DNA of 50,357 nt, the filler included, from Dimargaris cristalligena (taxonomy: Eukaryota), in assembly GCA_003614675.1 (NCBI GenBank). It is 2 parts of 2 records of this genome, joined end to end, with 100 filler letters (N's around TTAATTAATTAA, not from the genome) between each part and the next. Parts side by side here need not be neighbours in the genome. Positions count along the whole stretch, not along the records: positions 25,244 to 50,357 come from ML002571.1; 1 more part is not named here. The stretch is one strand, 5' to 3'. Under the pieces are notes generated by a model, which worked only from the letters and a program-made list of their open reading frames with translations, was not told where the DNA came from and did no database searches. Positions 2,980 to 45,386 of this stretch are shown piece after piece (position 1 is the stretch's first letter; every line of letters begins with the position of its first letter). The position numbers and the translations under genes were made by a program.

Positions 2980-5169
2980 ATGCCCCGCTCGCCCAAATTA
3001 CCTCAGCCAGTGCCCATCGGACCTGACAAGGGCAAACCGGCATCGAGCGCTTCCATGTTTCATCGTGCTTCCGCGGCAATTGAGGCTAAGATCCCCCGGA
3101 GCTTTCCGCGCCGTAGAAATTCCGATGACCAGGACGCTGGACCCGATGCCGGCTCCTCCGCTAAATTCCTCAGCAAATCGGCCCAGGACGGGGCCAAGCA
3201 GCAACTTGGTGTGTATCGGTCGTCCACCGTCGAAACGCTACGCCCCCCGGGAGACCAGCAATACACGGTTTCCTTCTCCAGCGACTTTAGAGACTATGAC
3301 CTCCTAACGCCTATTGGCTATGGGTCGTCAGCGGTAGTGTATAAGGGGGTCCATCGGCCCAACCGGCTGCTGGTGGCCATTAAAATCATCGACCTGGACA
3401 TGTTTGAGCGGCGCCAAATCGATGAACTCCGCCGTGAAACCCAAATCATGTCGCTGAGTCGTCACCCCAACGTCCTCGAGGTCCTATCGGCCTTTGTGCA
3501 GGATTCCAAACTTTACTTGGTGACGCCCTACCTGGCCGGCGGCTCCTGTCTCGATATCATTAAGACGGGGTTTCGCCGGGGCGTGGATGAATTTTCCATT
3601 GCCCTGATTCTTAAACAGGCCCTCAAGGCCCTGGACTATATTCACCGCACGGGCCATATCCATCGCGACGTGAAAGCCGGTAATTTGTTAATCGACGCGT
3701 CGGGCTGGGTCAAGCTGGCTGACTTTGGCGTCAGCTCGTCCCTGACCGACACTGTGGGTAGCGAACGGCAGGGAGTTCGACTCACCTTTGTAGGTACCCC
3801 ATGCTGGATGGCCCCTGAGGTCATTGAGGAAAAGGCGTACGATGCCAAAGCGGATATTTGGTCGTTTGGCATTACCGCCTTGGAACTGGCCACGGGAGAA
3901 GCTCCCTTGGCCAATCTACCGGCCCTCAAAGTACTCATGACAACCTTATCGAAACCCCCGCCAGCGTTGGATCGGGGGAATAGCCAGTATAAGTATTCGA
4001 AAAGCTTTGAGGATTTGATCAGCCAGTGTCTGCAAAAAGATCCCCGCCAGCGACCTACCGCCCAGGGTCTTCTACAACACACCTTTTTCCGCAAAGCCCG
4101 CAAGACGCATCACTACGGCCATTTGGTCACCCATCTGTTGCAACGGGTGCCCGTGCTCGAACAACGCCCCCATCGGCCGCCAGACCGGGCCCCCGAACAA
4201 TTCGCTCGCGGAGTCTCTTGGGACTTTTCCCAAATATCCACCCCACGTCCCGAGGAACGGACCGAATTTCTAGGGGGTGAGTACTTTGGAGCCGCCCCAA
4301 TTATTGCTGAACCCAGTGATGAGAATGATGATGACGGTGAGGGTGAGGATAACGCGATTCATGGGACGCGTGATGAACCCGACTTATCCGATGGCGGCAA
4401 CCCTGGCCTGTCAACTAATAGCCCCCACCGAACTACCCCTGGCACGACTCCTGTTATTGATACCCAACACCTCCCCTCTAATCCAATCCTGGGGCAGTCT
4501 CCACCAAATTCTTTACCCGAAATTGAATCATTGAATCCAACCACGACCGGCAGTTTGGACCCGACTGGACCCGCCCCCGCATCCTCCAAGTTTAAAGTGG
4601 GCCGATTCTCGGTATCCACGGCAACCGCTAATACTCATGCTGACCAGAGCCTATCCTCCCACACCTCCGATATACTAGGGGTTCCCGAATCGGAGCTAAA
4701 TCCCTCCGGCCATTTCGCCCGTTACCCTTCGCACGAGCCCGATTCCTCCTGGCCGCCCCTAAGTGCCCCGCCAGTTGTCATGAATACCAACACGAACACC
4801 AGTCACCATACCAATACGATCACGAATCGACGGGGTCGTTTTGCCGTAAACCGTACCGAAGGAGCTGGCGCCGATACTAATGCACCCGCCCCGCCCCCTC
4901 TACCCACTGAGCCGAGCGTTGTTGTTGGCGATCCTTACGATGCTCTATTAACTCGTCTCCAGGTTACCCTGGGAACGTCGAACGGATCCTCGTCTGACCC
5001 AATCCCAGCCGATGCCCAGATGGAGGCTTTGCTGGAAGCCGTGCGACGCTTGAAATCCTCCCACGCCTCGTTACAATCAGAAAATCGCCAACTTCGGTTG
5101 CAGAATGACATTCTCCAGCGACAGTTGGTTATCCCAAAGCCCACTGGGGAGCCACCAGCGTCGCCATAA
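2980..5169 (+). CDS. STE20/GCK-VI (OSR1/SPAK/Fray-like) Ser/Thr kinase, intronless, 729 aa
   Basis: Kinase motifs IGYGSSAVVY, VAIK, HRDVKAGN, DFG and the activation loop RLTFVGTPCWMAPEV typical of OSR1/SPAK-like kinases. Followed by a low-complexity tail and a C-terminal coiled-coil-like segment (SLQSENRQLRLQNDILQRQL). Confidence 0.9.
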   Translation: MPRSPKLPQPVPIGPDKGKPASSASMFHRASAAIEAKIPRSFPRRRNSDDQDAGPDAGSSAKFLSKSAQDGAKQQLGVYRSSTVETLRPPGDQQYTVSFSSDFRDYDLLTPIGYGSSAVVYKGVHRPNRLLVAIKIIDLDMFERRQIDELRRETQIMSLSRHPNVLEVLSAFVQDSKLYLVTPYLAGGSCLDIIKTGFRRGVDEFSIALILKQALKALDYIHRTGHIHRDVKAGNLLIDASGWVKLADFGVSSSLTDTVGSERQGVRLTFVGTPCWMAPEVIEEKAYDAKADIWSFGITALELATGEAPLANLPALKVLMTTLSKPPPALDRGNSQYKYSKSFEDLISQCLQKDPRQRPTAQGLLQHTFFRKARKTHHYGHLVTHLLQRVPVLEQRPHRPPDRAPEQFARGVSWDFSQISTPRPEERTEFLGGEYFGAAPIIAEPSDENDDDGEGEDNAIHGTRDEPDLSDGGNPGLSTNSPHRTTPGTTPVIDTQHLPSNPILGQSPPNSLPEIESLNPTTTGSLDPTGPAPASSKFKVGRFSVSTATANTHADQSLSSHTSDILGVPESELNPSGHFARYPSHEPDSSWPPLSAPPVVMNTNTNTSHHTNTITNRRGRFAVNRTEGAGADTNAPAPPPLPTEPSVVVGDPYDALLTRLQVTLGTSNGSSSDPIPADAQMEALLEAVRRLKSSHASLQSENRQLRLQNDILQRQLVIPKPTGEPPASP

Positions 5170-25143: not shown

Positions 25144-25243
25144 NNNNNNNNNNNNNNNNNNNNNNNNNNNNNNNNNNNNNNNNNNNNTTAATTAATTAAN
25201 NNNNNNNNNNNNNNNNNNNNNNNNNNNNNNNNNNNNNNNNNNN
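25144..25243. other. Assembly gap or artificial contig linker (44 N + TTAATTAATTAA + 44 N)
   Basis: Exactly 100 bp with a centred palindrome giving stops in all six frames. DPH7 exon 2 stops abruptly at it. Confidence 0.95.
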
Positions 25244-32577: not shown

Positions 32578-33804
32578 TTACTCGGAGCAGGGACCGTTCT
32601 GGCAGCCGGCACCGCAGAAGGCATCGGAAGAACCGCAGAAGCCGTGGGAGCTGCAGCAGTTGTTGTTGGCGCAAGGGTGAGCGGCGTCACAGGCACCATC
32701 GGGAAGAGGGGCGTTGGTGGGCTGGGCGGAGGTGGTGGGAGCAACGGTGCTGGAGGGGGTGGCGGTGGAGCTGGGGGCATCGGTGCTGGTGGGGACAGCA
32801 GTGGTGCTGGGCTTGCCTTCGCAAGGACCGTTCTGGCAGCCGGCACCGCAGAACTCGGCGGTGCTACCGCAGTAGCCGTACTGAGAGCAGCAAAGGTTGC
32901 CGGAGCAAGTGTGAGTGGCATCGCAGGCACCGTTGGGGAGAGTGGGGAGGGGTTCAGCGGTGGTGGTGGTGCTGGTGGGGGCAGCGGTGGTACTGGGCTT
33001 ACCCTCGCAAGGACCGTTCTGGCAGCCGGCACCGCAGAACTCGGCGGTGCTACCGCAGTAGCCGTACTGAGAGCAGCAAAGGTTGCCGGAGCAAGTGTGA
33101 GTGGCATCGCAGGCACCGTTGGGGAGAGTGGGGAGGGGTTCAGCGGTGGTGGTGGTGCTGGTGGGGGCAGCGGTGGTACTGGGCTTACCCTCGCAAGGAC
33201 CGTTCTGGCAGCCGGCACCGCAGAACTCGGCGGTGCTACCGCAGTAGCCGTACTGAGAACAGCACAGGTCACCGGCGCAAGTGTGGGTGGCGTCGCAGGC
33301 ACCGTTGGGGAGAGTGGGGAGGGGTCCGGCGGTGGTGGTGGTGCTGGTGGGGGCAGCGGTGGTGCTGGGCTTGCCTTCGCAAGGACCGTTCTGGCAGCCA
33401 GCACCGCAGAACTCGGCGGTATTACCACAGTAGCCGTACTGCGAGCAGCACAGGTTGTCAGCGCAAGGCTTGTTGGAACCGCACTGGTTGGTCTGGTTGC
33501 CTTCGCAAGGTCCGTTCTGGCAACCAGCACCGCAGAAATCGGCACCGGCACCACAGTAGCCCCACTTGCTGCAGCACAGACCGGCGGCGCAAGGGCTGGT
33601 GGTCGAGCAGAGACCGGGGTTGGTGGTGCAAGCACCGCCCTGGCAGCCAGTACCGCAGAAATCAGCGGTGGTACCGCAGTAGCCGTATTGAGAACAGCAC
33701 TGGCCGGCGGCACAGGGGGCGGAGGCGGAGCACTGGCCCTGGGCGGACACGAGGGTGGCGGCACCGAGGATGAGGAGGGAAGCGATGGCGATCTTGCGGA
33801 ACAT
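32578..33804 (-). CDS. Secreted non-catalytic chitin-binding protein with 7 hevein/CBM18 domains and Thr/Pro-rich linkers, 408 aa
   Basis: Signal peptide MFRKIAIASLLILGAATLVSA. Seven 8-Cys units C..C....CCS(Q/K/S)(Y/W/H)G(Y/F)CG....CG.GCQ.G.C, with no catalytic domain. Third codon positions are strongly C-biased. Confidence 0.95.
   Translation of the reverse strand: MFRKIAIASLLILGAATLVSAQGQCSASAPCAAGQCCSQYGYCGTTADFCGTGCQGGACTTNPGLCSTTSPCAAGLCCSKWGYCGAGADFCGAGCQNGPCEGNQTNQCGSNKPCADNLCCSQYGYCGNTAEFCGAGCQNGPCEGKPSTTAAPTSTTTTAGPLPTLPNGACDATHTCAGDLCCSQYGYCGSTAEFCGAGCQNGPCEGKPSTTAAPTSTTTTAEPLPTLPNGACDATHTCSGNLCCSQYGYCGSTAEFCGAGCQNGPCEGKPSTTAAPTSTTTTAEPLPTLPNGACDATHTCSGNLCCSQYGYCGSTAEFCGAGCQNGPCEGKPSTTAVPTSTDAPSSTATPSSTVAPTTSAQPTNAPLPDGACDAAHPCANNNCCSSHGFCGSSDAFCGAGCQNGPCSE
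32821..33378. repeat. Three tandem 186-bp (62-aa) near-identical linker+CBM18 units inside the lectin gene
   Basis: GCAAGGACCGTTCTGGCAGCC recurs at 32821, 33007, 33193 and 33379 (period 186). Confidence 0.95.
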
Positions 33805-37282: not shown

Positions 37283-40171
37283 CTATTCATTCTTGGAATC
37301 CGGAGCAATGTAGGAGCCGATCAGCTTTTCCGAAGCCTCATCATCATCACGGTCTTCTTCATTATCCGCTTCCACAATATCCGCCAACTGGGGGGTTTGC
37401 CCCGACTTGATAATATCCTCTAGAACATCCTCCTCCGATGTGCGACCATTGACCAATTTGCGGGCCAAAAACCACAGCGCGTTGATCACCTTATTCTTAA
37501 CCTGGCGGGTGGCCGAGGCCATCCGGTGGTAGAGGGGGGCCGTATGGCGATTGCGTTCCAAGAAAGAACGCACGCCGAAGAGCTGGCGTTGCCGGGCTTT
37601 GCCCCCGGCTAGGCTGGGCACCCGGAAGAACAGTATTTGGTCGATGAAACGCAGGTGGAGGCCCTGGTAGAGGAGTTGGTCGGCGGTGCGGAAGGCATTC
37701 CGGATTTGGTCCAGGTTCGGTTGGCAGGGGAGCAGTTGCAGGGATAGGCGCCAGATGCGAATTAAGGCAATATTACCCGGGGGGCTGGACCGACTGAACC
37801 GGCGGTTGGCCGAACGCTCTTTTGCGTCACCCCCTGTTGTGGAAGGAGGGGGAGTAAGCGGTGGTGAGGTATTACTGTCCTGGGGCCCGTCCCCTCCGTA
37901 GGCAAACCAATTGGCATCGTAGCCGAACTCGCGGACGAAAACGGTATACAAATCCAACATCATTTGCGTCCACCACCGGGACGTATCGCCGATTCTATCG
38001 TGAATCGGAACGGCGATGTTCGATTCATAGCCCGGCTGGCTAAGCACATACGACCGGTAGTAGCCGCGGTGCAGGGGATGTCCCCACCAATTGAGAGTTA
38101 CGGTAAGCTGGGGCGTCCGTAACTGCTGTTCGTTTAGACTCAGAATAATCGGAATAAAATCGCTCCAGGCCTCAAAGACCGCACGACCGTCGTGGTGGGC
38201 TAAGCAGTCGTCCGTCTGGGGACCACCCACGAGGCGGTAGGATATACCATGGGTGTACTCATGGGCTACGACGCCCGGGTCAACCATGTAAGCGTAGCGG
38301 TGGCCGGGTTCCTGTTCCTGAATTTGGGCCTCCAGGGTCATGATGGGCGACTCGCCGTCTTTGGCCGTGTACATTTCGCCCAAGCGAAGTCCTTTGGTGC
38401 GGCTACCTTTAATCACCACCAACTGCACCGGATCGCCCCCGGATGGCGAGGATGCTGGTGCCGGATGACTGGGCCGGGGGCCGAAACTGCCATTGGCTTC
38501 GGTAACCCCGACGACATGGTAAAACCAGTCGTGTAGGAAGGTGGTCATAACATAAGTGTCGTGGGTGGCCTCGACCAGAGACATGGATGGACACATGGGG
38601 GGTTCAGTAGAAAGCACGGGGGGCTGGACGGGAGAGCAGGGCGCTTCGTATTCGGCGTGGGCGAGTCCTTCATCGCTGAGGTACCGGGCGCTTACGTAGG
38701 GATTTTCCGTTTTCTTGGCCGCTTGAAATTCGGCCCGCCGGGGCCAGTACTGGTACAAATGCTCCGTATCAAACCGAATTTGGTGGCGGGGGGCAATATC
38801 GAGTGTGAGCGGGCTGGGGTCGTCACCGGCGTCGCTCGCTGGGGTAGGGTCGGCTTTAACCAACCCCGTGTCCGACGACCTAGCATCACCCTTTCCTTCC
38901 GTGGGATAAGGGGAGTTGTCGGAGGTAGGCGGACCCTGCGTCTGTGGCATACTGGCCAGAGACGGGGAAAACAGAGCGGCCGGCGACTCAGAAGCAATCT
39001 TGGCCTTGATGTCCTCTTCCCCCTCGCTAACCCAGTATTCCTCTTCACGAATAGCGTTACTAATATCGATAATCTTGTAGTTATAGTAGTTAAACGTTAA
39101 TACCTGGCCCCGGATAATGCCCGTAGGGGCCCAGAGCTCCACAACCCAGGCGGGATTAATCAAGTGGTCGCGCTTGAAGTAAATGGGGTATAGGCGGGCT
39201 TCACCACCCGGCAGCCCACTGTGGCCTCGAACGATGTACCGGAAGCGGGTGAAGCTCGGCCCGTACGGCAGGTTGGGATAGGGCCGGTGAAAGATTGGTT
39301 CGGGCCGTAAGTAATCCTGCCGCTCAAACGTCCACCCGTGAACGTCGAGGATGCTGAGGAGGTAGTTGCTACTATGCAACATGCCCACGAGGGCCTTCTT
39401 GCAGTTAAACTCGTCCCAGGCCTTGGCCTCCAGGTGCTCGTTGGTAAGGCGTCCGGATTCGACATCTTCGACCACCCACCGCCCGTCGTTACTAGGGTCG
39501 CTGTTTTCATGGTAGGACCCGGCGTAGTCGAGGGGGTCAGCCTCGGACCCACTGTTCCCGGCGGTATCGCCGACCGCCACGGGATGGTGAACGGGGTGGA
39601 CCCGCTGCTCAAATTTGCGCAGCCGCATCCCGTCCGCCAGGTAGGGGTTGATATGAACGAACTGACCCTGACTATCGAACAACACAATGGCCTCGCCGTT
39701 TACCATGGGCAAACCCTTGTAGACCTGCTGAACATGGACAAACACCTGGCTGGTTTGGGGGTCGGTGAAGGTATCCGTAATTTCTAACCGGCAACTGAAA
39801 CAGCGTAGCTGTTCCCGGACTTTTTCCAAGGACCGGGCGAAAATCTTTTCTGTGAGCGGGGCCGGTGCCGGCGGAGGCGGAGACGGGAATGCTTGTCCGG
39901 CAGCGGGATAACCATTCGGGCGGCTATTCTCCGAAGTCGACCGGTTTTTTGTATCCGAATGCGGGTGGACATGGTGGCTATCCCGGTGGGAGGTTAGTTC
40001 ATGGACGAAGTCGAGGCCCTTGCGTAAAACCGATGCGGTAGCGGAGCCCCCGGGGGCGTGGTGAATCCAGTTCATGGGGACGTCATTTCGACCGGCGACT
40101 CCGGCCGATACGGCCAGGCAATAGAGCAGAATGATCTGCGATAAAATAAGTAAAGATAATAGCCACACCAT
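37283..40171 (-). CDS. Secreted M36 (fungalysin) zinc metalloprotease, divergent, about 962 aa, intronless
   Basis: Likely start ATG 40171 (MVWLLSLLILSQIILLYCLAVSA signal). FTP-type propeptide (VHVQQVYKGLPMVNGEAIVLFDSQG) and PepSY-like PAWVVEL. HEYTHGISYRLVGGP..CL..AVFEAWSDF gives HEXXH plus a third Glu ligand; LQLLPCQPNLDQIRNAFRTAD resembles the fungalysin C-terminal PCNP..RDA..AD motif. Confidence 0.88.
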   Translation of the reverse strand: MVWLLSLLILSQIILLYCLAVSAGVAGRNDVPMNWIHHAPGGSATASVLRKGLDFVHELTSHRDSHHVHPHSDTKNRSTSENSRPNGYPAAGQAFPSPPPPAPAPLTEKIFARSLEKVREQLRCFSCRLEITDTFTDPQTSQVFVHVQQVYKGLPMVNGEAIVLFDSQGQFVHINPYLADGMRLRKFEQRVHPVHHPVAVGDTAGNSGSEADPLDYAGSYHENSDPSNDGRWVVEDVESGRLTNEHLEAKAWDEFNCKKALVGMLHSSNYLLSILDVHGWTFERQDYLRPEPIFHRPYPNLPYGPSFTRFRYIVRGHSGLPGGEARLYPIYFKRDHLINPAWVVELWAPTGIIRGQVLTFNYYNYKIIDISNAIREEEYWVSEGEEDIKAKIASESPAALFSPSLASMPQTQGPPTSDNSPYPTEGKGDARSSDTGLVKADPTPASDAGDDPSPLTLDIAPRHQIRFDTEHLYQYWPRRAEFQAAKKTENPYVSARYLSDEGLAHAEYEAPCSPVQPPVLSTEPPMCPSMSLVEATHDTYVMTTFLHDWFYHVVGVTEANGSFGPRPSHPAPASSPSGGDPVQLVVIKGSRTKGLRLGEMYTAKDGESPIMTLEAQIQEQEPGHRYAYMVDPGVVAHEYTHGISYRLVGGPQTDDCLAHHDGRAVFEAWSDFIPIILSLNEQQLRTPQLTVTLNWWGHPLHRGYYRSYVLSQPGYESNIAVPIHDRIGDTSRWWTQMMLDLYTVFVREFGYDANWFAYGGDGPQDSNTSPPLTPPPSTTGGDAKERSANRRFSRSSPPGNIALIRIWRLSLQLLPCQPNLDQIRNAFRTADQLLYQGLHLRFIDQILFFRVPSLAGGKARQRQLFGVRSFLERNRHTAPLYHRMASATRQVKNKVINALWFLARKLVNGRTSEEDVLEDIIKSGQTPQLADIVEADNEEDRDDDEASEKLIGSYIAPDSKNE

Positions 40172-42060: not shown

Positions 42061-42202
42061 ATATGGGAGAAGTTCATACTGGCTGTATATTGAAAAATCC
42101 ATTGGATGAGGCCAATATTACTGGTTAAAAGCTTTTCTCACATATTCGCCCATTCACGTATTATGTAAAACCTTATACAGTCGGTTTGAATTTCATCCAT
42201 AT
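42061..42202 (+). mobile_element. MITE-like element, copy 5 (about 170 bp downstream of the repeat-precursor stop codon)
   Basis: atatgggagaagttcatactggctgtatattgaaaaatccattggatgaggccaatattactgg...tatacagtcggtttgaatttcatccatat. Confidence 0.88.
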
Positions 42203-42375
42203 ACTTTTAAACCCAATTCCCACAAGATACCAAGGGAATAGATCATTTATTGATGATGGTTTTTAGGATGAGGTATGGGAAGCCTCGTGTGTTACGCATA
42301 TGAATGCGATTCTGGTGAATACAAAGGGGATTGGACCCTAGAAAGTCAATAGAGGGAATGGCACGAGGGAGCCAT

Positions 42376-43674
42376 TTAGTACCAGCCGAAGTTGTTACCG
42401 CGGCCAGAATCACCACCGTCACCACCGTCGCCGCCGTTACCTCCATCGCCGCGGCCGAAACTATCGCCACCATCACCGCCGTCACCGCCGTTGCCACCGC
42501 TTCCAGAGCCACTGCCCCAGTTGTTTCCCCAGTTGCGACCACGGTGATCGTCGAAGTCGAAGTAGGGGCTGCGGCGGTGGACACCGGAGTTGCCACCGTC
42601 ACCGCCATCGCCACCGTCGCCAGCATTGCCGCGACCGAAGCTGTTGCCGCCATCACCGCCGTCACCACCATCACCAGCATCACCGGAGCTACGGCCCCAG
42701 TTACGGCCACGGTTGTCACGGTCATGATCGTTGAAACGGCCACGGCCACGACCACGGCGGTCATCATCCCAACCGCCGTGGTTGTTGCTGTTGAAGCGCC
42801 AGTCATTGAAGTTAAGCAGAGGGCTGCGGCGATGAACTCCGCCAGCATTGCCACCATCACCACCGTCACCGCCGTTGCCAGCGTTACCCCATCCCGAGCT
42901 GTTGCCACCGTCACCGCCGTTACCGCCGTCACCACCATTGCCGGAGTTACCCCCCCAATTGCCACCCCGGTTGTTGCCCCAGTTGCCGCCGCGGTTGTAG
43001 CGGTCGTTGTTCCAGCGGCCACGGTCGTTGCCGCGGAAGCGCCGGTCATTGAAGTCAGGCACTGGGCTGCGGCGGTGGATACCACCGGCATTGCCACCAT
43101 CACCACCGTCACCACCATTGCCAGCGTTACCCCATCCCGAGCTGTTGCCGCCATCACCGCCGTTACCGCCGTCACCACCATTGCCGGAGTTACCCCCCCA
43201 GTTACCACCCCGGTTGTTGCCCCAGTTGCCGCCGCGGTTGTAGCGGTCGTTGTTCCAGCGGCCACGGTCGTTGCCGCGGAAGCGCCGGTCATTGAAGTCA
43301 GGCACTGGGCTGCGGCGGTGGATACCACCGGCATTGCCACCATCACCACCGTCACCACCATTGCCAGCGTTACCCCATCCCGAGCTGTTGCCGCCATCAC
43401 CGCCGTTACCGCCGTCACCACCATTGCCGGAGTTACCCCCCCAGTTACCACCCCGGTTGTTGCCCCAGTTGCCGCCGCGGTTGTAGCGGTCGTTGTTCCA
43501 GCGGCCACGGCCGTTGCCGCGGAAGCGATCGTTGTTGTTCCAACCGCGACCGTGGTCACGGTCATTCCAGCCACGGGTGGTAAGCTCGGGGGCTTCAGTA
43601 GCGGCAGTAGCAGCCTGGGCCTGGGTGGCCATCACGGTGGCCAGAAGAGCGGCGATTCCAACGTTGACCTTCAT
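42376..43674 (-). CDS. Secreted Gly/Asn/Asp/Arg/Trp-rich repeat precursor with four HRR|SP dibasic sites (candidate Kex2-processed repeat protein), 432 aa
   Basis: Signal peptide MKVNVGIAALLATVMATQAQA, then five related modules separated by IHRRSPVP (x2), VHRRSPLL and VHRRSPYF. Codon usage is strongly biased (GGT/GGC, AAC, GAC). Confidence 0.85.
   Translation of the reverse strand: MKVNVGIAALLATVMATQAQAATAATEAPELTTRGWNDRDHGRGWNNNDRFRGNGRGRWNNDRYNRGGNWGNNRGGNWGGNSGNGGDGGNGGDGGNSSGWGNAGNGGDGGDGGNAGGIHRRSPVPDFNDRRFRGNDRGRWNNDRYNRGGNWGNNRGGNWGGNSGNGGDGGNGGDGGNSSGWGNAGNGGDGGDGGNAGGIHRRSPVPDFNDRRFRGNDRGRWNNDRYNRGGNWGNNRGGNWGGNSGNGGDGGNGGDGGNSSGWGNAGNGGDGGDGGNAGGVHRRSPLLNFNDWRFNSNNHGGWDDDRRGRGRGRFNDHDRDNRGRNWGRSSGDAGDGGDGGDGGNSFGRGNAGDGGDGGDGGNSGVHRRSPYFDFDDHRGRNWGNNWGSGSGSGGNGGDGGDGGDSFGRGDGGNGGDGGDGGDSGRGNNFGWY
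42793..43528. repeat. About three tandem 243-bp (81-aa) units inside the repeat precursor gene
   Basis: Antisense ORFs 43007-43243 and 43250-43486 translate identically at offset 243. Matches extend to about 42793 and 43528. Confidence 0.92.
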
Positions 43675-45386
43675 GTTGCTGAGTTGCGAAGTAAGATACC
43701 GAAAGAGGGTAATGTTTTGAGTTTAAATGAAATCCGTCGAGGATGGATTGGAATAATTAATGTCAAACTGATGCGTCGAAAGAAAAAATCGTACAAGTTA
43801 ATGAATAGGGAGTAGGAATATCGCCAGAACCAGTTCAGGGACCGTCGGTGACAGAATACAGAAACAATCGTTGGATAAAATGTTGCTAAGGAAGCAAATT
43901 TTCTCAGAAAAATGCGTTAGGAAGGAAGAGAAGGCGGAATCGTTGAGAATGCAAATAGAGCACTGGGCTTATTGTTTCAATGGTTGCCGACCCGCTTGGT
44001 ATATATAGGAAAACTCCAACCACTTAGGACGGTGTAGTACCCCTCAGAATACTGCCCGACTCTCCTCATATTGGGCATAATGGAGTTTTGCGGTGCATGT
44101 CCGGTAGGTTTGACCGTCGTCTCCACTACTGAGTGGACCAACTTAGATGAAAGGCTGCCGAGTCGTCCAGAACGGGCGGGTATCGGCTGGGCGACTACAA
44201 TACATTTCATACACTAATGCAGGCCAAATGTTAGGCCAACTGCCCAGATTCATGTACCATCCCAGTTGTCCGACCTGGGCTTCTACACAGCTATTCCTTA
44301 GGAATGTGTTCCGGTATGCATGGCGCATCTTCTAGTTACCGAATCAACCTGCTGGTTGGTGATTCGTAATACGGTCTTGAACCTGAAGTCCAGTAGTGTA
44401 TTTCTTTTGGAAGGAATTACACTACCGGTCCAACTTGAGCTACGCAATGGCTATCCAGGCGGCGGAGTTTACACGCACGGGAGTGGACAACTGGCGACAT
44501 ACCCACTGTTCGTACCGGTATTGACGATACAGTATTATTAAGCGGCTCATCCGCCACTGCATGGGCAAAGGGGTGTGAAATAGCGGAATAGTTCACTGGC
44601 GACTGGGGTGTGTGACTTTAATTTAGACCATTTGACAAGATCTTTTTTAATCCATCGGGAAATGCCCATCGCTGGGGATGAAGGCGCTTGCGGGGTCAAA
44701 GGGGAAACGCGATTTCCAAATGCACGACCGGACAATCCCCGAAAAATAAGGTGTCGAACTGCCCCTGAAAAGGTGGTCCACTTTCGCAGTCAAGAAGGCG
44801 GCCAATTGTCCCATGAGTGTACCTTCAAAAGCGTGGAGATTATTGTGACACTGCGCAAATGCCAATGTTTTGGACATAATCCAATCGTATTCAGTAGGCG
44901 GGTATATAACTCGGTAACAGGGCTGGGTAACTCCCGCTTCTAACCATTGTAAGAGAGGTGGGTTGGTTGTATGAGAAGTACACATGTCGGCCGGGTTGCA
45001 GTACCCCAATCTCCCTTTGTGAGTAAGGTCCGGTGAAACCCAGCGTCCAATTGAAGGCATGGTGAGTTGAGCCAAATTTGATGCAGCGCTGCATCGGGAA
45101 GAAAACTGTACTGAGCCTTCGGCGGGATTCCACTCACCTCTCAAACAAGATTAGTAATATGAAATGTATGTGGGGCGGTTATTCCAAATTAACTTCAGTT
45201 TATTGTATGAAAAAAAGGGGGGGATAGGCAAATTCCCCCGTCGATGGATTCAGGCACAGTATGCTCCTAAACCGACCAAAGACGTAATCAAATGACCGAG
45301 AGCAACACGAAGGCGGGGTTCGAGCAGCCACCGAATCCGAACCAGTCCAATGGATCCCCCCCCATTGATCCCACCGGTATCCCGGC

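Follow-up and report, generated by a model that had tools for sequence, protein, structure and literature searches.

In a 50,357-nucleotide window from Dimargaris cristalligena (GenBank assembly GCA_003614675.1), the minus strand between positions 42376 and 43674 holds an intronless gene for a secreted repeat precursor of 432 residues, P0001 (contig C364). Judged by its sequence, it is a Kex2-processed repeat protein (KEP) by the published definition, which asks for a signal peptide for the endoplasmic reticulum, at least three tandem repeats of 8-100 residues between KR, KK, RK or RR sites, and a kexin encoded in the genome (PMC7329392): hydropathy points to a signal, the spacing between the HRR sites is 81, 81 and 85 residues, and the genome carries a kexin. 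Cleavage itself is predicted. We tentatively favour reading P0001 as the precursor of a structural material of the surface, wall or matrix, the pieces of which would form a polyglycine-II (PGII) layer with variable Arg/aromatic arms. Among the points for it are a gene family with a constant signal peptide and hairpin and variable arms, the kexin, the position of the RR pairs, an LxxR motif at the end of the pro-segment and even numbers of GGX runs.

KEPs are common in fungi and mostly lack a known function. The family described here suggests a concrete structure for one such protein, an idea that can be tested at little cost, since a 41-residue synthetic peptide suffices to probe PGII self-assembly. 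If it is true, fungi would join springtails, phage, mycobacteria and a few enzymes as sources of PGII bundles, and PGII would pass from intramolecular domains to self-assembling units released by a protease, with a bearing on the design of protein materials and on host attachment by haustorial mycoparasites. If the structure fails, the family is one more lineage-specific glycine-rich KEP.

The precursor and its reading frame

P0001 begins with a putative signal peptide (about residues 1-21; 43612-43674, minus strand, as for all parts of the gene), recognised from hydropathy and from matches in the paralogues, across which it is kept; its cleavage point is presumed. The best 11-residue Kyte-Doolittle mean is 2.43 at this N-terminus and -0.16 elsewhere in the protein. 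Hydropathy reveals no hydrophobic segment beyond the signal peptide and no tail of the glycosylphosphatidylinositol (GPI) type at the C-terminus, which is hydrophilic. A pro-segment (43573-43611) ends at residue 34 in LTTR, an LxxR-type Kex2 site, and is followed by five modules divided by four HRR/SP sites that end at residues 121, 202, 283 and 368. The layout of a module is an arm rich in Arg, Asn and aromatic residues, then two GG[D/N] runs with a short turn between them. Module 1 (residues 35-121; 43312-43572) has an Arg/Trp/Asn arm, a Gly hairpin at 43333-43428 and its HRR site at 43312-43320. Module 2 (residues 122-202; 43069-43311) opens with an SP..DFND cap, followed by arm, hairpin (43090-43185) and HRR site (43069-43077), and module 3 (residues 203-283; 42826-43068; hairpin 42847-42942, HRR site 42826-42834) is nearly identical to it; modules 1-3 form a 243-bp tandem array of 3.0 copies with 96% matches. 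The arm of module 4 (residues 284-368; 42571-42825; hairpin about 42589-42675, HRR site 42571-42579) has diverged, and module 5 (residues 369-432; 42379-42570) carries an SPYFDFDD cap, a hairpin at 42409-42504 and a C-terminal aromatic WY. The protein contains no Cys, one Lys and seven Pro. The signal peptide, the LTTR end, the five modules, the four sites and the lack of Cys had all been described in the initial annotation, and the 432-residue frame confirms them. Three NSS sequons in the hairpin turns may be glycosylation sites.

Two further long open reading frames overlap the gene, one of 485 residues on the plus strand (42358-43815) and one of 440 on the minus strand (42243-43565). Both are rich in Ala, Val and Thr, are products of the GGN-RAY repeat and could mislead gene callers. 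If the repeat were non-coding, or if one of these shadow frames were the gene, P0001 would not exist as described. The 485-residue frame stays open, and at 0.134 it scores only somewhat lower on codons than the 432-residue frame (0.204; the 440-residue frame scores -0.195), so codon scores alone are not decisive. Yet among 18 differences between the tandem copies, 11 are silent in the 432-residue frame, against 2 in the 485-residue and 3 in the 440-residue frame, and because silent changes concentrate there we take the 432-residue frame to be the real one. Among 12 family segments, stops break the antisense frame in 6 and the other minus frame in 8. Given the silent changes and these stops, the shadow frames were rejected as the gene, and the signal peptide, TATA box and leader conserved in the family speak against any non-gene reading, to which we give next to no credence. 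P0001 is almost certainly a real gene with a signal peptide and a family-conserved promoter and leader, which suggest that it is expressed.

Contigs from four DNA sequencing runs were compared with the 3' part of the gene (991 bases). That of run X1 is identical to positions 42142-42790 (649 bases), that of X4 shows no difference over 413 bases, and X5 covers part of the region. In run X2, from a separate study, the sole difference is an in-frame insertion of 12 nucleotides, one GNWG unit, behind position 42513. No RNA run figured among those listed as containing the sequence.

The segregation of charge that had been reported for the modules is plain in P0001, where the N-terminal halves of modules 1-5 carry net charges of +5, +4, +4, +2 and -1 and the Gly halves -4, -4, -4, -5 and -5; as a trait of the whole family it does not hold, being strongest in P0001. 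The arms of modules 1-4, with charges from +2 to +5 and 6-7 aromatic residues, could belong to antimicrobial or membrane-active Arg/Trp peptides directed at dung competitors or at the host, with a precedent in candidalysin and its precursor Ece1 (PMC9769878), itself a Kex2 substrate (PMC9769878, PMC2515848). We find this very improbable. The isoelectric points of the predicted pieces 1-5 are 8.7, 6.5, 6.5, 5.4 and 4.1, they contain no hydrophobic segment, and there is no site to free a cationic arm from its acidic half.

Kexin sites and peptidases

RR pairs are not more numerous than chance would have them (7 in the mature chain, 5.66 after shuffling, P=0.33). Their position is another matter: in 10 of the 19 distinct long linkers found in the family, an RR follows a GGX run at no more than 13 residues, compared with 3.77 after shuffling (P=0.0007), in a test whose window was set after seeing the data and whose linkers are not independent. 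All four HRR/SP sites have Ile or Val at P4, RR after the hairpin recurs in the paralogues, and LxxR, the expanded Kex2 motif (PMC8528282), closes the pro-segment in 7 of 8 family N-termini. The Dimargaris draft genome (G000; 30.65 Mb in 2,220 contigs) encodes a complete kexin, a 991-residue open frame with Peptidase_S8 and P_proprotein domains on contig C197. The P4 residues, the recurring RR and the kexin uphold the idea of Kex2-type sites in a real secreted precursor. Kexin would cut at LTTR and at the four [IV]HRR/SP sites, five pieces of 64-85 residues would result, and the Arg pair may be removed by a carboxypeptidase like Kex1; the seven S10 carboxypeptidase matches in G000 include none assigned to Kex1.

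HRR sites 1 and 2, and only these, continue as SP-VP-DFNDRR, as had been seen before. The initial annotation took this run for X-Pro dipeptides open to Ste13-type trimming ahead of a second cut at RR, a proposal that finds no support. The secondary RR pairs, three in number and ending at residues 131, 212 and 307, each carry Asp at P3, which is reported not to favour Kex2 cutting (PMC8528282), and at the position of the second RR the paralogues and modules 4-5 carry DYR, DWR or DHR. Two X-Pro or X-Ala dipeptides occur at two of the four sites and one at the other two, with none or one in the paralogues. Because of the Asp at P3, the DYR, DWR or DHR elsewhere and the confinement of SP-VP to the duplicated modules, neither the Ste13 step nor the second cut is supported. 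DPPIV_N has no match in G000 (its control matched in 5 of 14 genomes), and none of the six S9 peptidases matched there is a dipeptidyl peptidase IV (DPP-IV; five domain-scanned, one read by eye). A peptidase of the DPP-IV/Ste13/Dap2 type is thus undetected genome-wide, which would be a loss if real; G000 being a draft of 2,220 contigs, its absence is not proven. Ste13 trimming was rejected on the undetected DPP-IV and the restricted X-Pro run. Processing would thus do without Ste13, the second RR with its preceding Asp would be cut little or not at all, and the processing scheme as a whole, with kexin cuts and five pieces, strikes us as quite probable.

The same evidence bears on a pheromone-like signal trimmed by Ste13, as alpha-factor is. 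The SP-VP that modules 2 and 3 have behind RR would suit it, and Ste13 signatures are reported in KEPs outside Ascomycota (PMC6339444). Yet DPP-IV was not found in the draft, the dipeptide run is not conserved, and the pieces are far longer than the 9-24 residues of alpha pheromones (PMC6339444), so that such a signal is extremely unlikely here. A ribosomally synthesized and modified peptide of the dikaritin or ustiloxin type was likewise rejected, no DUF3328 (UstYa) gene lying beside P0001, whose neighbours encode a fungalysin, a hevein-repeat protein and Mpp10; this agrees with the earlier remark that no such enzyme is nearby. Genome-wide, DUF3328 gave no match in a search whose control was also silent.

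A predicted polyglycine-II hairpin

The Gly half of a module is a hairpin of two GG[D/N] strands of 3-5 triplets each, joined by an S-x-G-[RW]-G turn. The PGII propensity that had been proposed for it is supported, as a prediction. Four copies of the 41-residue hairpin of module 2 co-folded with a score of 0.54, the best of three controls reaching 0.00; in this model the predicted local distance difference test (pLDDT) is 81-83 and contacts agree 100% between runs. Among known homo-pairs, 21 of 30 attain the mark set for complexes, and among single chains 0 of 23 do (17 of 29 and 0 of 30, respectively, for eukaryotes). Equivalent residues meet in register (i:i), antiparallel cross-contacts (26-17, 31-12) occur as well, and the contact face comprises residues 25, 28, 31, 34, 37 and 40. 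Because this face repeats every third residue, we read the contact pattern, on geometric grounds, as a two-layer PGII stack rather than as beta structure. The PGII sandwich of mycobacterial PGRS domains follows sequence rules of 3-5 triplets per strand, an even strand number, preserved Gly and short aromatic turns on one edge (PMC10216338), and the family hairpins fit them, a correspondence that again is predictive.

The exposed position of the triplets is D, N or H in 392 of 398 cases, Ser in 5 and Trp in 1. Ice binding had been among the suggested functions, and an antifreeze protein of the springtail type would share the GGX tripeptide pattern and the predicted two-layer fold. Its ice-binding face, however, needs Ala, Ser, Thr or Val on alternate helices (PMC10235112), and because none of the 398 exposed positions is Ala, Thr or Val we consider this function scarcely credible.

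Other structural searches gave little. Foldseek, run with a model of pLDDT 38, returned no matches and is uninformative; a feature search of the Atlas gave no usable hit for P0001 or for its paralogue on contig C340; and a search of PDB sequences with the hairpin profile found one collagen-like peptide (E 2.1).

A family with constant hairpins and variable arms

G000 contains at least seven complete genes of the family (on contigs C364, that of P0001, C601, C340, C819, C1603, C899 and C706) and at least four partial loci at contig ends (C1710, C264, C829 and C1478), some of which may be two ends of one gene. The family count is a lower bound, as further pattern matches lie beyond those listed. 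A signal-peptide pattern is common to eight loci (control pattern, 0), and all complete members end in Tyr. Coding sequences are 49-61% identical. A cap motif, [ST]P-Y-x-D-F-D-D-x-R, stands directly after many cleavage sites. Every regular member keeps the GG[D/N] hairpin and the arms vary; the 41 hairpin units extracted, 39 of which were aligned after dropping two duplicates, show 12 invariant Gly columns. GGX runs number 10, 8, 8, 10, 16 and 22 in the complete genes, and hence are even in 6 of 7, the irregular C706 having 5. The members on C899, C829 and C1478 are almost without Arg/aromatic arms.

Two loci deserve a remark of their own. C706 (locus L047, 1193-2491) is a His/Gly-rich relative with 57% Gly, 45 His, the family signal peptide and two ALYRR/GDGYGY sites, possibly a metal-binding variant. 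In C264 (locus L050, about 3015-3017) an in-frame stop inside a GGX run marks either a broken copy or an assembly error.

The family genes also resemble each other upstream. Six aligned upstream regions (P0001, C601, C819, C899, C1603 and C340) share, in the same order, a TATA box and three boxes. In P0001 the TATA box lies 333 nucleotides upstream of the ATG (44000-44007, minus strand, as for the boxes), and all 6 upstream regions of paralogues have a TATA that aligns. Leader box A (43957-43970) follows about 30 nucleotides downstream, presumably near the start site; box B (43881-43915) was recognised from the aligned regions, and box C (43827-43839) is a short palindrome. The 30.65 Mb contain the core pattern of box B at five places, all of them upstream of family genes, the pattern having been built from these genes themselves and C340 being without it. 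Such conserved boxes beside coding sequences of 49-61% identity suggest that the family genes are expressed and co-regulated. The boxes probably lie within a 5' leader of about 290 nucleotides, between TATA and ATG. Box B ends in a pyrimidine run and AG, resembling a 3' splice site, with no matching donor seen. An RNA structure for box B finds no support (-3.1 kcal/mol; two-sided change in one of eight pairs, no covariation support).

Searches for relatives elsewhere returned nothing convincing. No homologue of P0001 appeared among 7,999 candidates at E <= 0.001, in a collection from which P0001 itself is absent, and Pfam has no match for it at E up to 0.1, in keeping with the earlier observation that no family could be recognised. 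An N-terminal alignment search gave 44 hits at E <= 1 among 8,000, none with RR[ST]P, the named ones being bacterial. The family profile, run against 1.84 billion representatives, gave 40 hits, none at 1e-10; 38 of them match GGNGG by composition and lack the layout of the family, and the other two had already come up in the N-terminal search. The search with C601 produced 22 hits at E <= 10 (best 1.3e-3), and the three examined are unrelated. A metagenome pattern scan found no family member among seven hits (five off-frame or by chance, two of bacterial type with GGNGG inserts). In G000 itself, an HRRSPY-type DNA pattern matched 10 times, three of them in known members, against 9 times for the reversed control. 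Low complexity blinds these searches, and the homologue searches also missed the family's own members; because they did, the lack of a homologue outside G000 does not amount to absence from other fungi. Many unnamed, apparently bacterial secreted proteins (P0050-P0087, L079 and L080) carry GG-X-GG hairpins between beta-solenoid-like repeats. Their sequences suggest that the GG-X-GG hairpin is a widespread convergent module.

Weighing the reading as a surface material

If P0001 is a surface material, each released piece would end in a PGII hairpin of two GG[D/N] strands. Because one hairpin is too small for a bundle, hairpins would have to pile up, in register, as a PGII sheet of two layers such as snow-flea antifreeze protein or the PGRS 'sail' displays, the pieces staying together after nicking or polymerising in trans. 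From the model, we think this stacking step reasonably probable. The rows of Asp and Asn on the faces would find their counter-charge in the Arg-rich arms or in Ca2+. Standing out from one edge, the variable Arg/Trp/Tyr arms would adhere to wall polymers, to each other or to the host, and spores, hyphae or appressoria would in this way gain a coat or an adhesive layer. For this last step, from charge balance to coat, we see the chances as even.

Several observations weigh against the surface-material reading. On the side of processing, RR after the hairpin does recur in relatives, but C899 has no RR site and only RK/P, and the parts of C1710 and C264 have no dibasic site; because of these, cleavage is not family-wide. 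Predicted Kex2 sites are, moreover, cut in only about two thirds of proteins in vitro (PMC2515848). On the side of structure, the initial annotation had pointed to structure prediction as a check, with a divided outcome: the four-copy stack succeeded, and AlphaFold2 of a single module gave no usable model (pLDDT 57.9). Nor did AlphaFold2 of the mature chain with 11 sequences (pLDDT 37.6). The complex controls were unrelated proteins and not Gly-rich scrambles, the calibration covers neither four copies nor disordered chains, the family alignment played no part in the fold, and the pass may reflect memory of solved PGII bundles. The Atlas's own models have actinobacterial proteins as nearest neighbours, PE/PGRS clusters included, with template-modelling (TM) scores of 0.43-0.46 for P0001 (0.76 by best target) and 0.61-0.63 for C340; this likeness counts in favour of the reading, but the models are of low confidence (pLDDT 0.46-0.47). 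Finally, some plant Gly-rich proteins adopt only transient polyproline II (PPII) in simulation (PMC13243192).

These failures of AlphaFold2 to find a fold for module or mature chain are what one would expect of disordered polyampholyte peptides forming a coacervate, gel or mucilage, for a spore drop or for protection from desiccation, with no ordered PGII bundle. The segregation of Arg/aromatic and acidic halves and the net charge near neutral would fit as well. Yet a strict triplet register, a fixed hairpin length, even runs and invariant Gly are more constraint than disorder needs, and the four-copy hairpin model is confident and stacked. We judge disorder unlikely, the more so given that model. 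A largely uncleaved single chain is the converse case: a PGII platform with variable loops serving as a host-recognition adhesin, like phage S16 gp38 or PE_PGRS, in which the RR sites regulate turnover or shedding only. Ten GGX runs suffice for an intramolecular sandwich, family members without cleavable sites exist, and the PGII bundle of gp38 carries variable receptor-binding loops (bioRxiv 10.1101/2023.11.25.568672). Well-formed [IV]HRR sites at a fixed position in long exposed loops, however, and the lack of an anchor sequence in P0001 make such a platform distinctly unlikely.

A bolder version of the surface-material reading would have hairpin 'bricks', released by kexin, polymerise in trans into open-ended, non-amyloid PGII sheets or fibrils, with co-regulated paralogues, alike in the brick and unlike in their Arg/aromatic arms, co-assembling into a mixed coat or glue that recognises or sticks to the host. 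We put this forward as a doubtful idea.

Relation to known systems

The initial annotation spoke of a new system. This was overstated, KEPs being a catalogued class with 7,878 members across 1,461 genomes and most per genome (11.56) in Zoopagomycota, where 185 of 185 lack a DUF3328 neighbour (PMC7329392, Table 1 for the latter). P0001 resembles KEPs in its signal peptide, repeats between RR sites, lineage-restricted expansion of paralogues and lack of a DUF3328 neighbour (PMC7329392, PMC6339444, PMC9769878), and differs in that its pieces are long (64-85 residues) and bipartite and that the conserved part is a GGX hairpin. No KEP with GGX or PGII is described in the accessible portions of those three papers. 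The survey gives its 11 D. cristalligena KEPs as accessions without sequences, to which P0001 cannot be matched (PMC7329392). The class is thus known, and the architecture of protease-separated hairpins, predicted to be PGII, with variable arms was not found described. In the literature searched, which mostly did not reach subscription journals, we found neither a natural PGII bundle made from separately released hairpins, or any in fungi, nor secreted glycine-rich Dimargaris proteins. It likewise gave no description of a Kex2-cut glycine-rich or PPII repeat protein in Zoopagomycota or Kickxellomycotina (PMC11878562, as far as its text was available), and no polyglycine II GGX fibrils in fungi, the matches listed concerning silk, materials and other topics. 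Fungi go unmentioned in the parts available of two papers on PPII bundles (bioRxiv 10.1101/2023.11.25.568672, PMC13243192).

The closest functional model is Rep1 of Ustilago maydis, a pre-pro-protein cut in the secretory pathway whose peptides form a hyphal surface layer (PMC3133707). Compared by description, Rep1 pieces form amphipathic amyloid fibrils, whereas those of P0001 are hydrophilic, about one third Gly and predicted to be PGII; the lack of a hydrophobic segment after the signal and the three-residue contact period of the model argue against a Rep1-type amyloid. AGL proteins of arbuscular mycorrhizal fungi are also secreted, zwitterionic, low-complexity tandem repeats of early-diverging fungi; they form PPII and self-assemble, and some basal members are Gly/Asn-rich (PMC8786786). 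Yet AGLs are rich in Pro, Gly and Ala, often GPI-anchored and, in the text available, not described as Kex2-cut (PMC8786786), whereas P0001 has 7 Pro in 432 residues, no GPI tail and GG[D/N] hairpins.

Mycobacterial PE_PGRS proteins share with P0001 GGN/GGX strands, each of 3-5 triplets and even in number, whose short aromatic turns lie along one edge, opposite the variable loops. P0001 differs by the lack of a PE domain, a GRPLI motif and a PF21526 match, by D/N at X where PGRS has A/N, and by its eukaryotic signal peptide and internal Kex2 sites. The resemblance is probably one of fold, by convergence. The springtail PPII-bundle antifreeze proteins HhAFP and GrAFP are likewise secreted G-X1-X2 repeats with a two-layer bundle (predicted in P0001), which in P0001 come without the Ala/Thr/Val ice face and without Cys, and with long Arg/aromatic arms and internal cleavage sites. 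Phage S16 gp38 offers a conserved PGII platform with hypervariable loops; it is a single uncleaved domain on a tail fibre, and no homology to P0001 is shown. By analogy, P0001 would work like Rep1 or the AGLs and belong to neither, nor to PE_PGRS or the antifreeze proteins.

Genomic surroundings and host interaction

P0001 is one of three consecutive, co-oriented and apparently secreted genes on the minus strand, which encode a chitin-binding protein with seven hevein domains (32578-33804), an M36 fungalysin with intact HEXXH (37283-40171) and the KEP itself (42376-43674). Dimargaritales are haustorial parasites of other fungi and are found on dung (PMC9866270), and the trio is possibly a small host-interaction patch of a mycoparasite. 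This context recalls the SP7 family of arbuscular mycorrhizal fungi, effectors that combine a signal peptide with imperfect repeats of hydrophilic character and work inside nuclear condensates (PMC11333574). As a haustorial effector of that kind, the repeats of P0001 would enter the host fungus, where RG-rich arms would attach to RNA or become part of condensates; as a biotrophic mycoparasite the lineage forms an appressorium and a haustorium (PMC9866270), and the adjacent hevein and fungalysin genes would suit this role. The conserved part of the family, however, is the Gly hairpin and not the arm, C899, C829 and C1478 nearly lack Arg/aromatic arms, and no sequence link to SP7 is established. 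An effector appears unlikely.

Other genes of the window include that for Mpp10, also a neighbour of P0001, and some that may encode proteins such as Rpn3, Rpn11 and a STE20-like one. A Pho85-like kinase, also encoded in the window, falls at 90% identity into one cluster with a protein labelled D. cristalligena. Downstream of P0001, an AATAAA at 42246-42251 (minus strand) is a candidate polyadenylation signal by consensus match. An element resembling a miniature inverted-repeat transposable element, 142 bp long (42061-42202), begins 170 bp downstream of the stop. The window has six copies, and no clear target-site duplication is seen in six copies read. In G000 a first look gave 935 candidates, and 40 scored besides the element itself are 79-94% identical. 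Its 29-nucleotide inverted ends are 79% complementary, with ATAT at both termini. The run of N at 25144-25243 of the window joins contigs C363 and C364.

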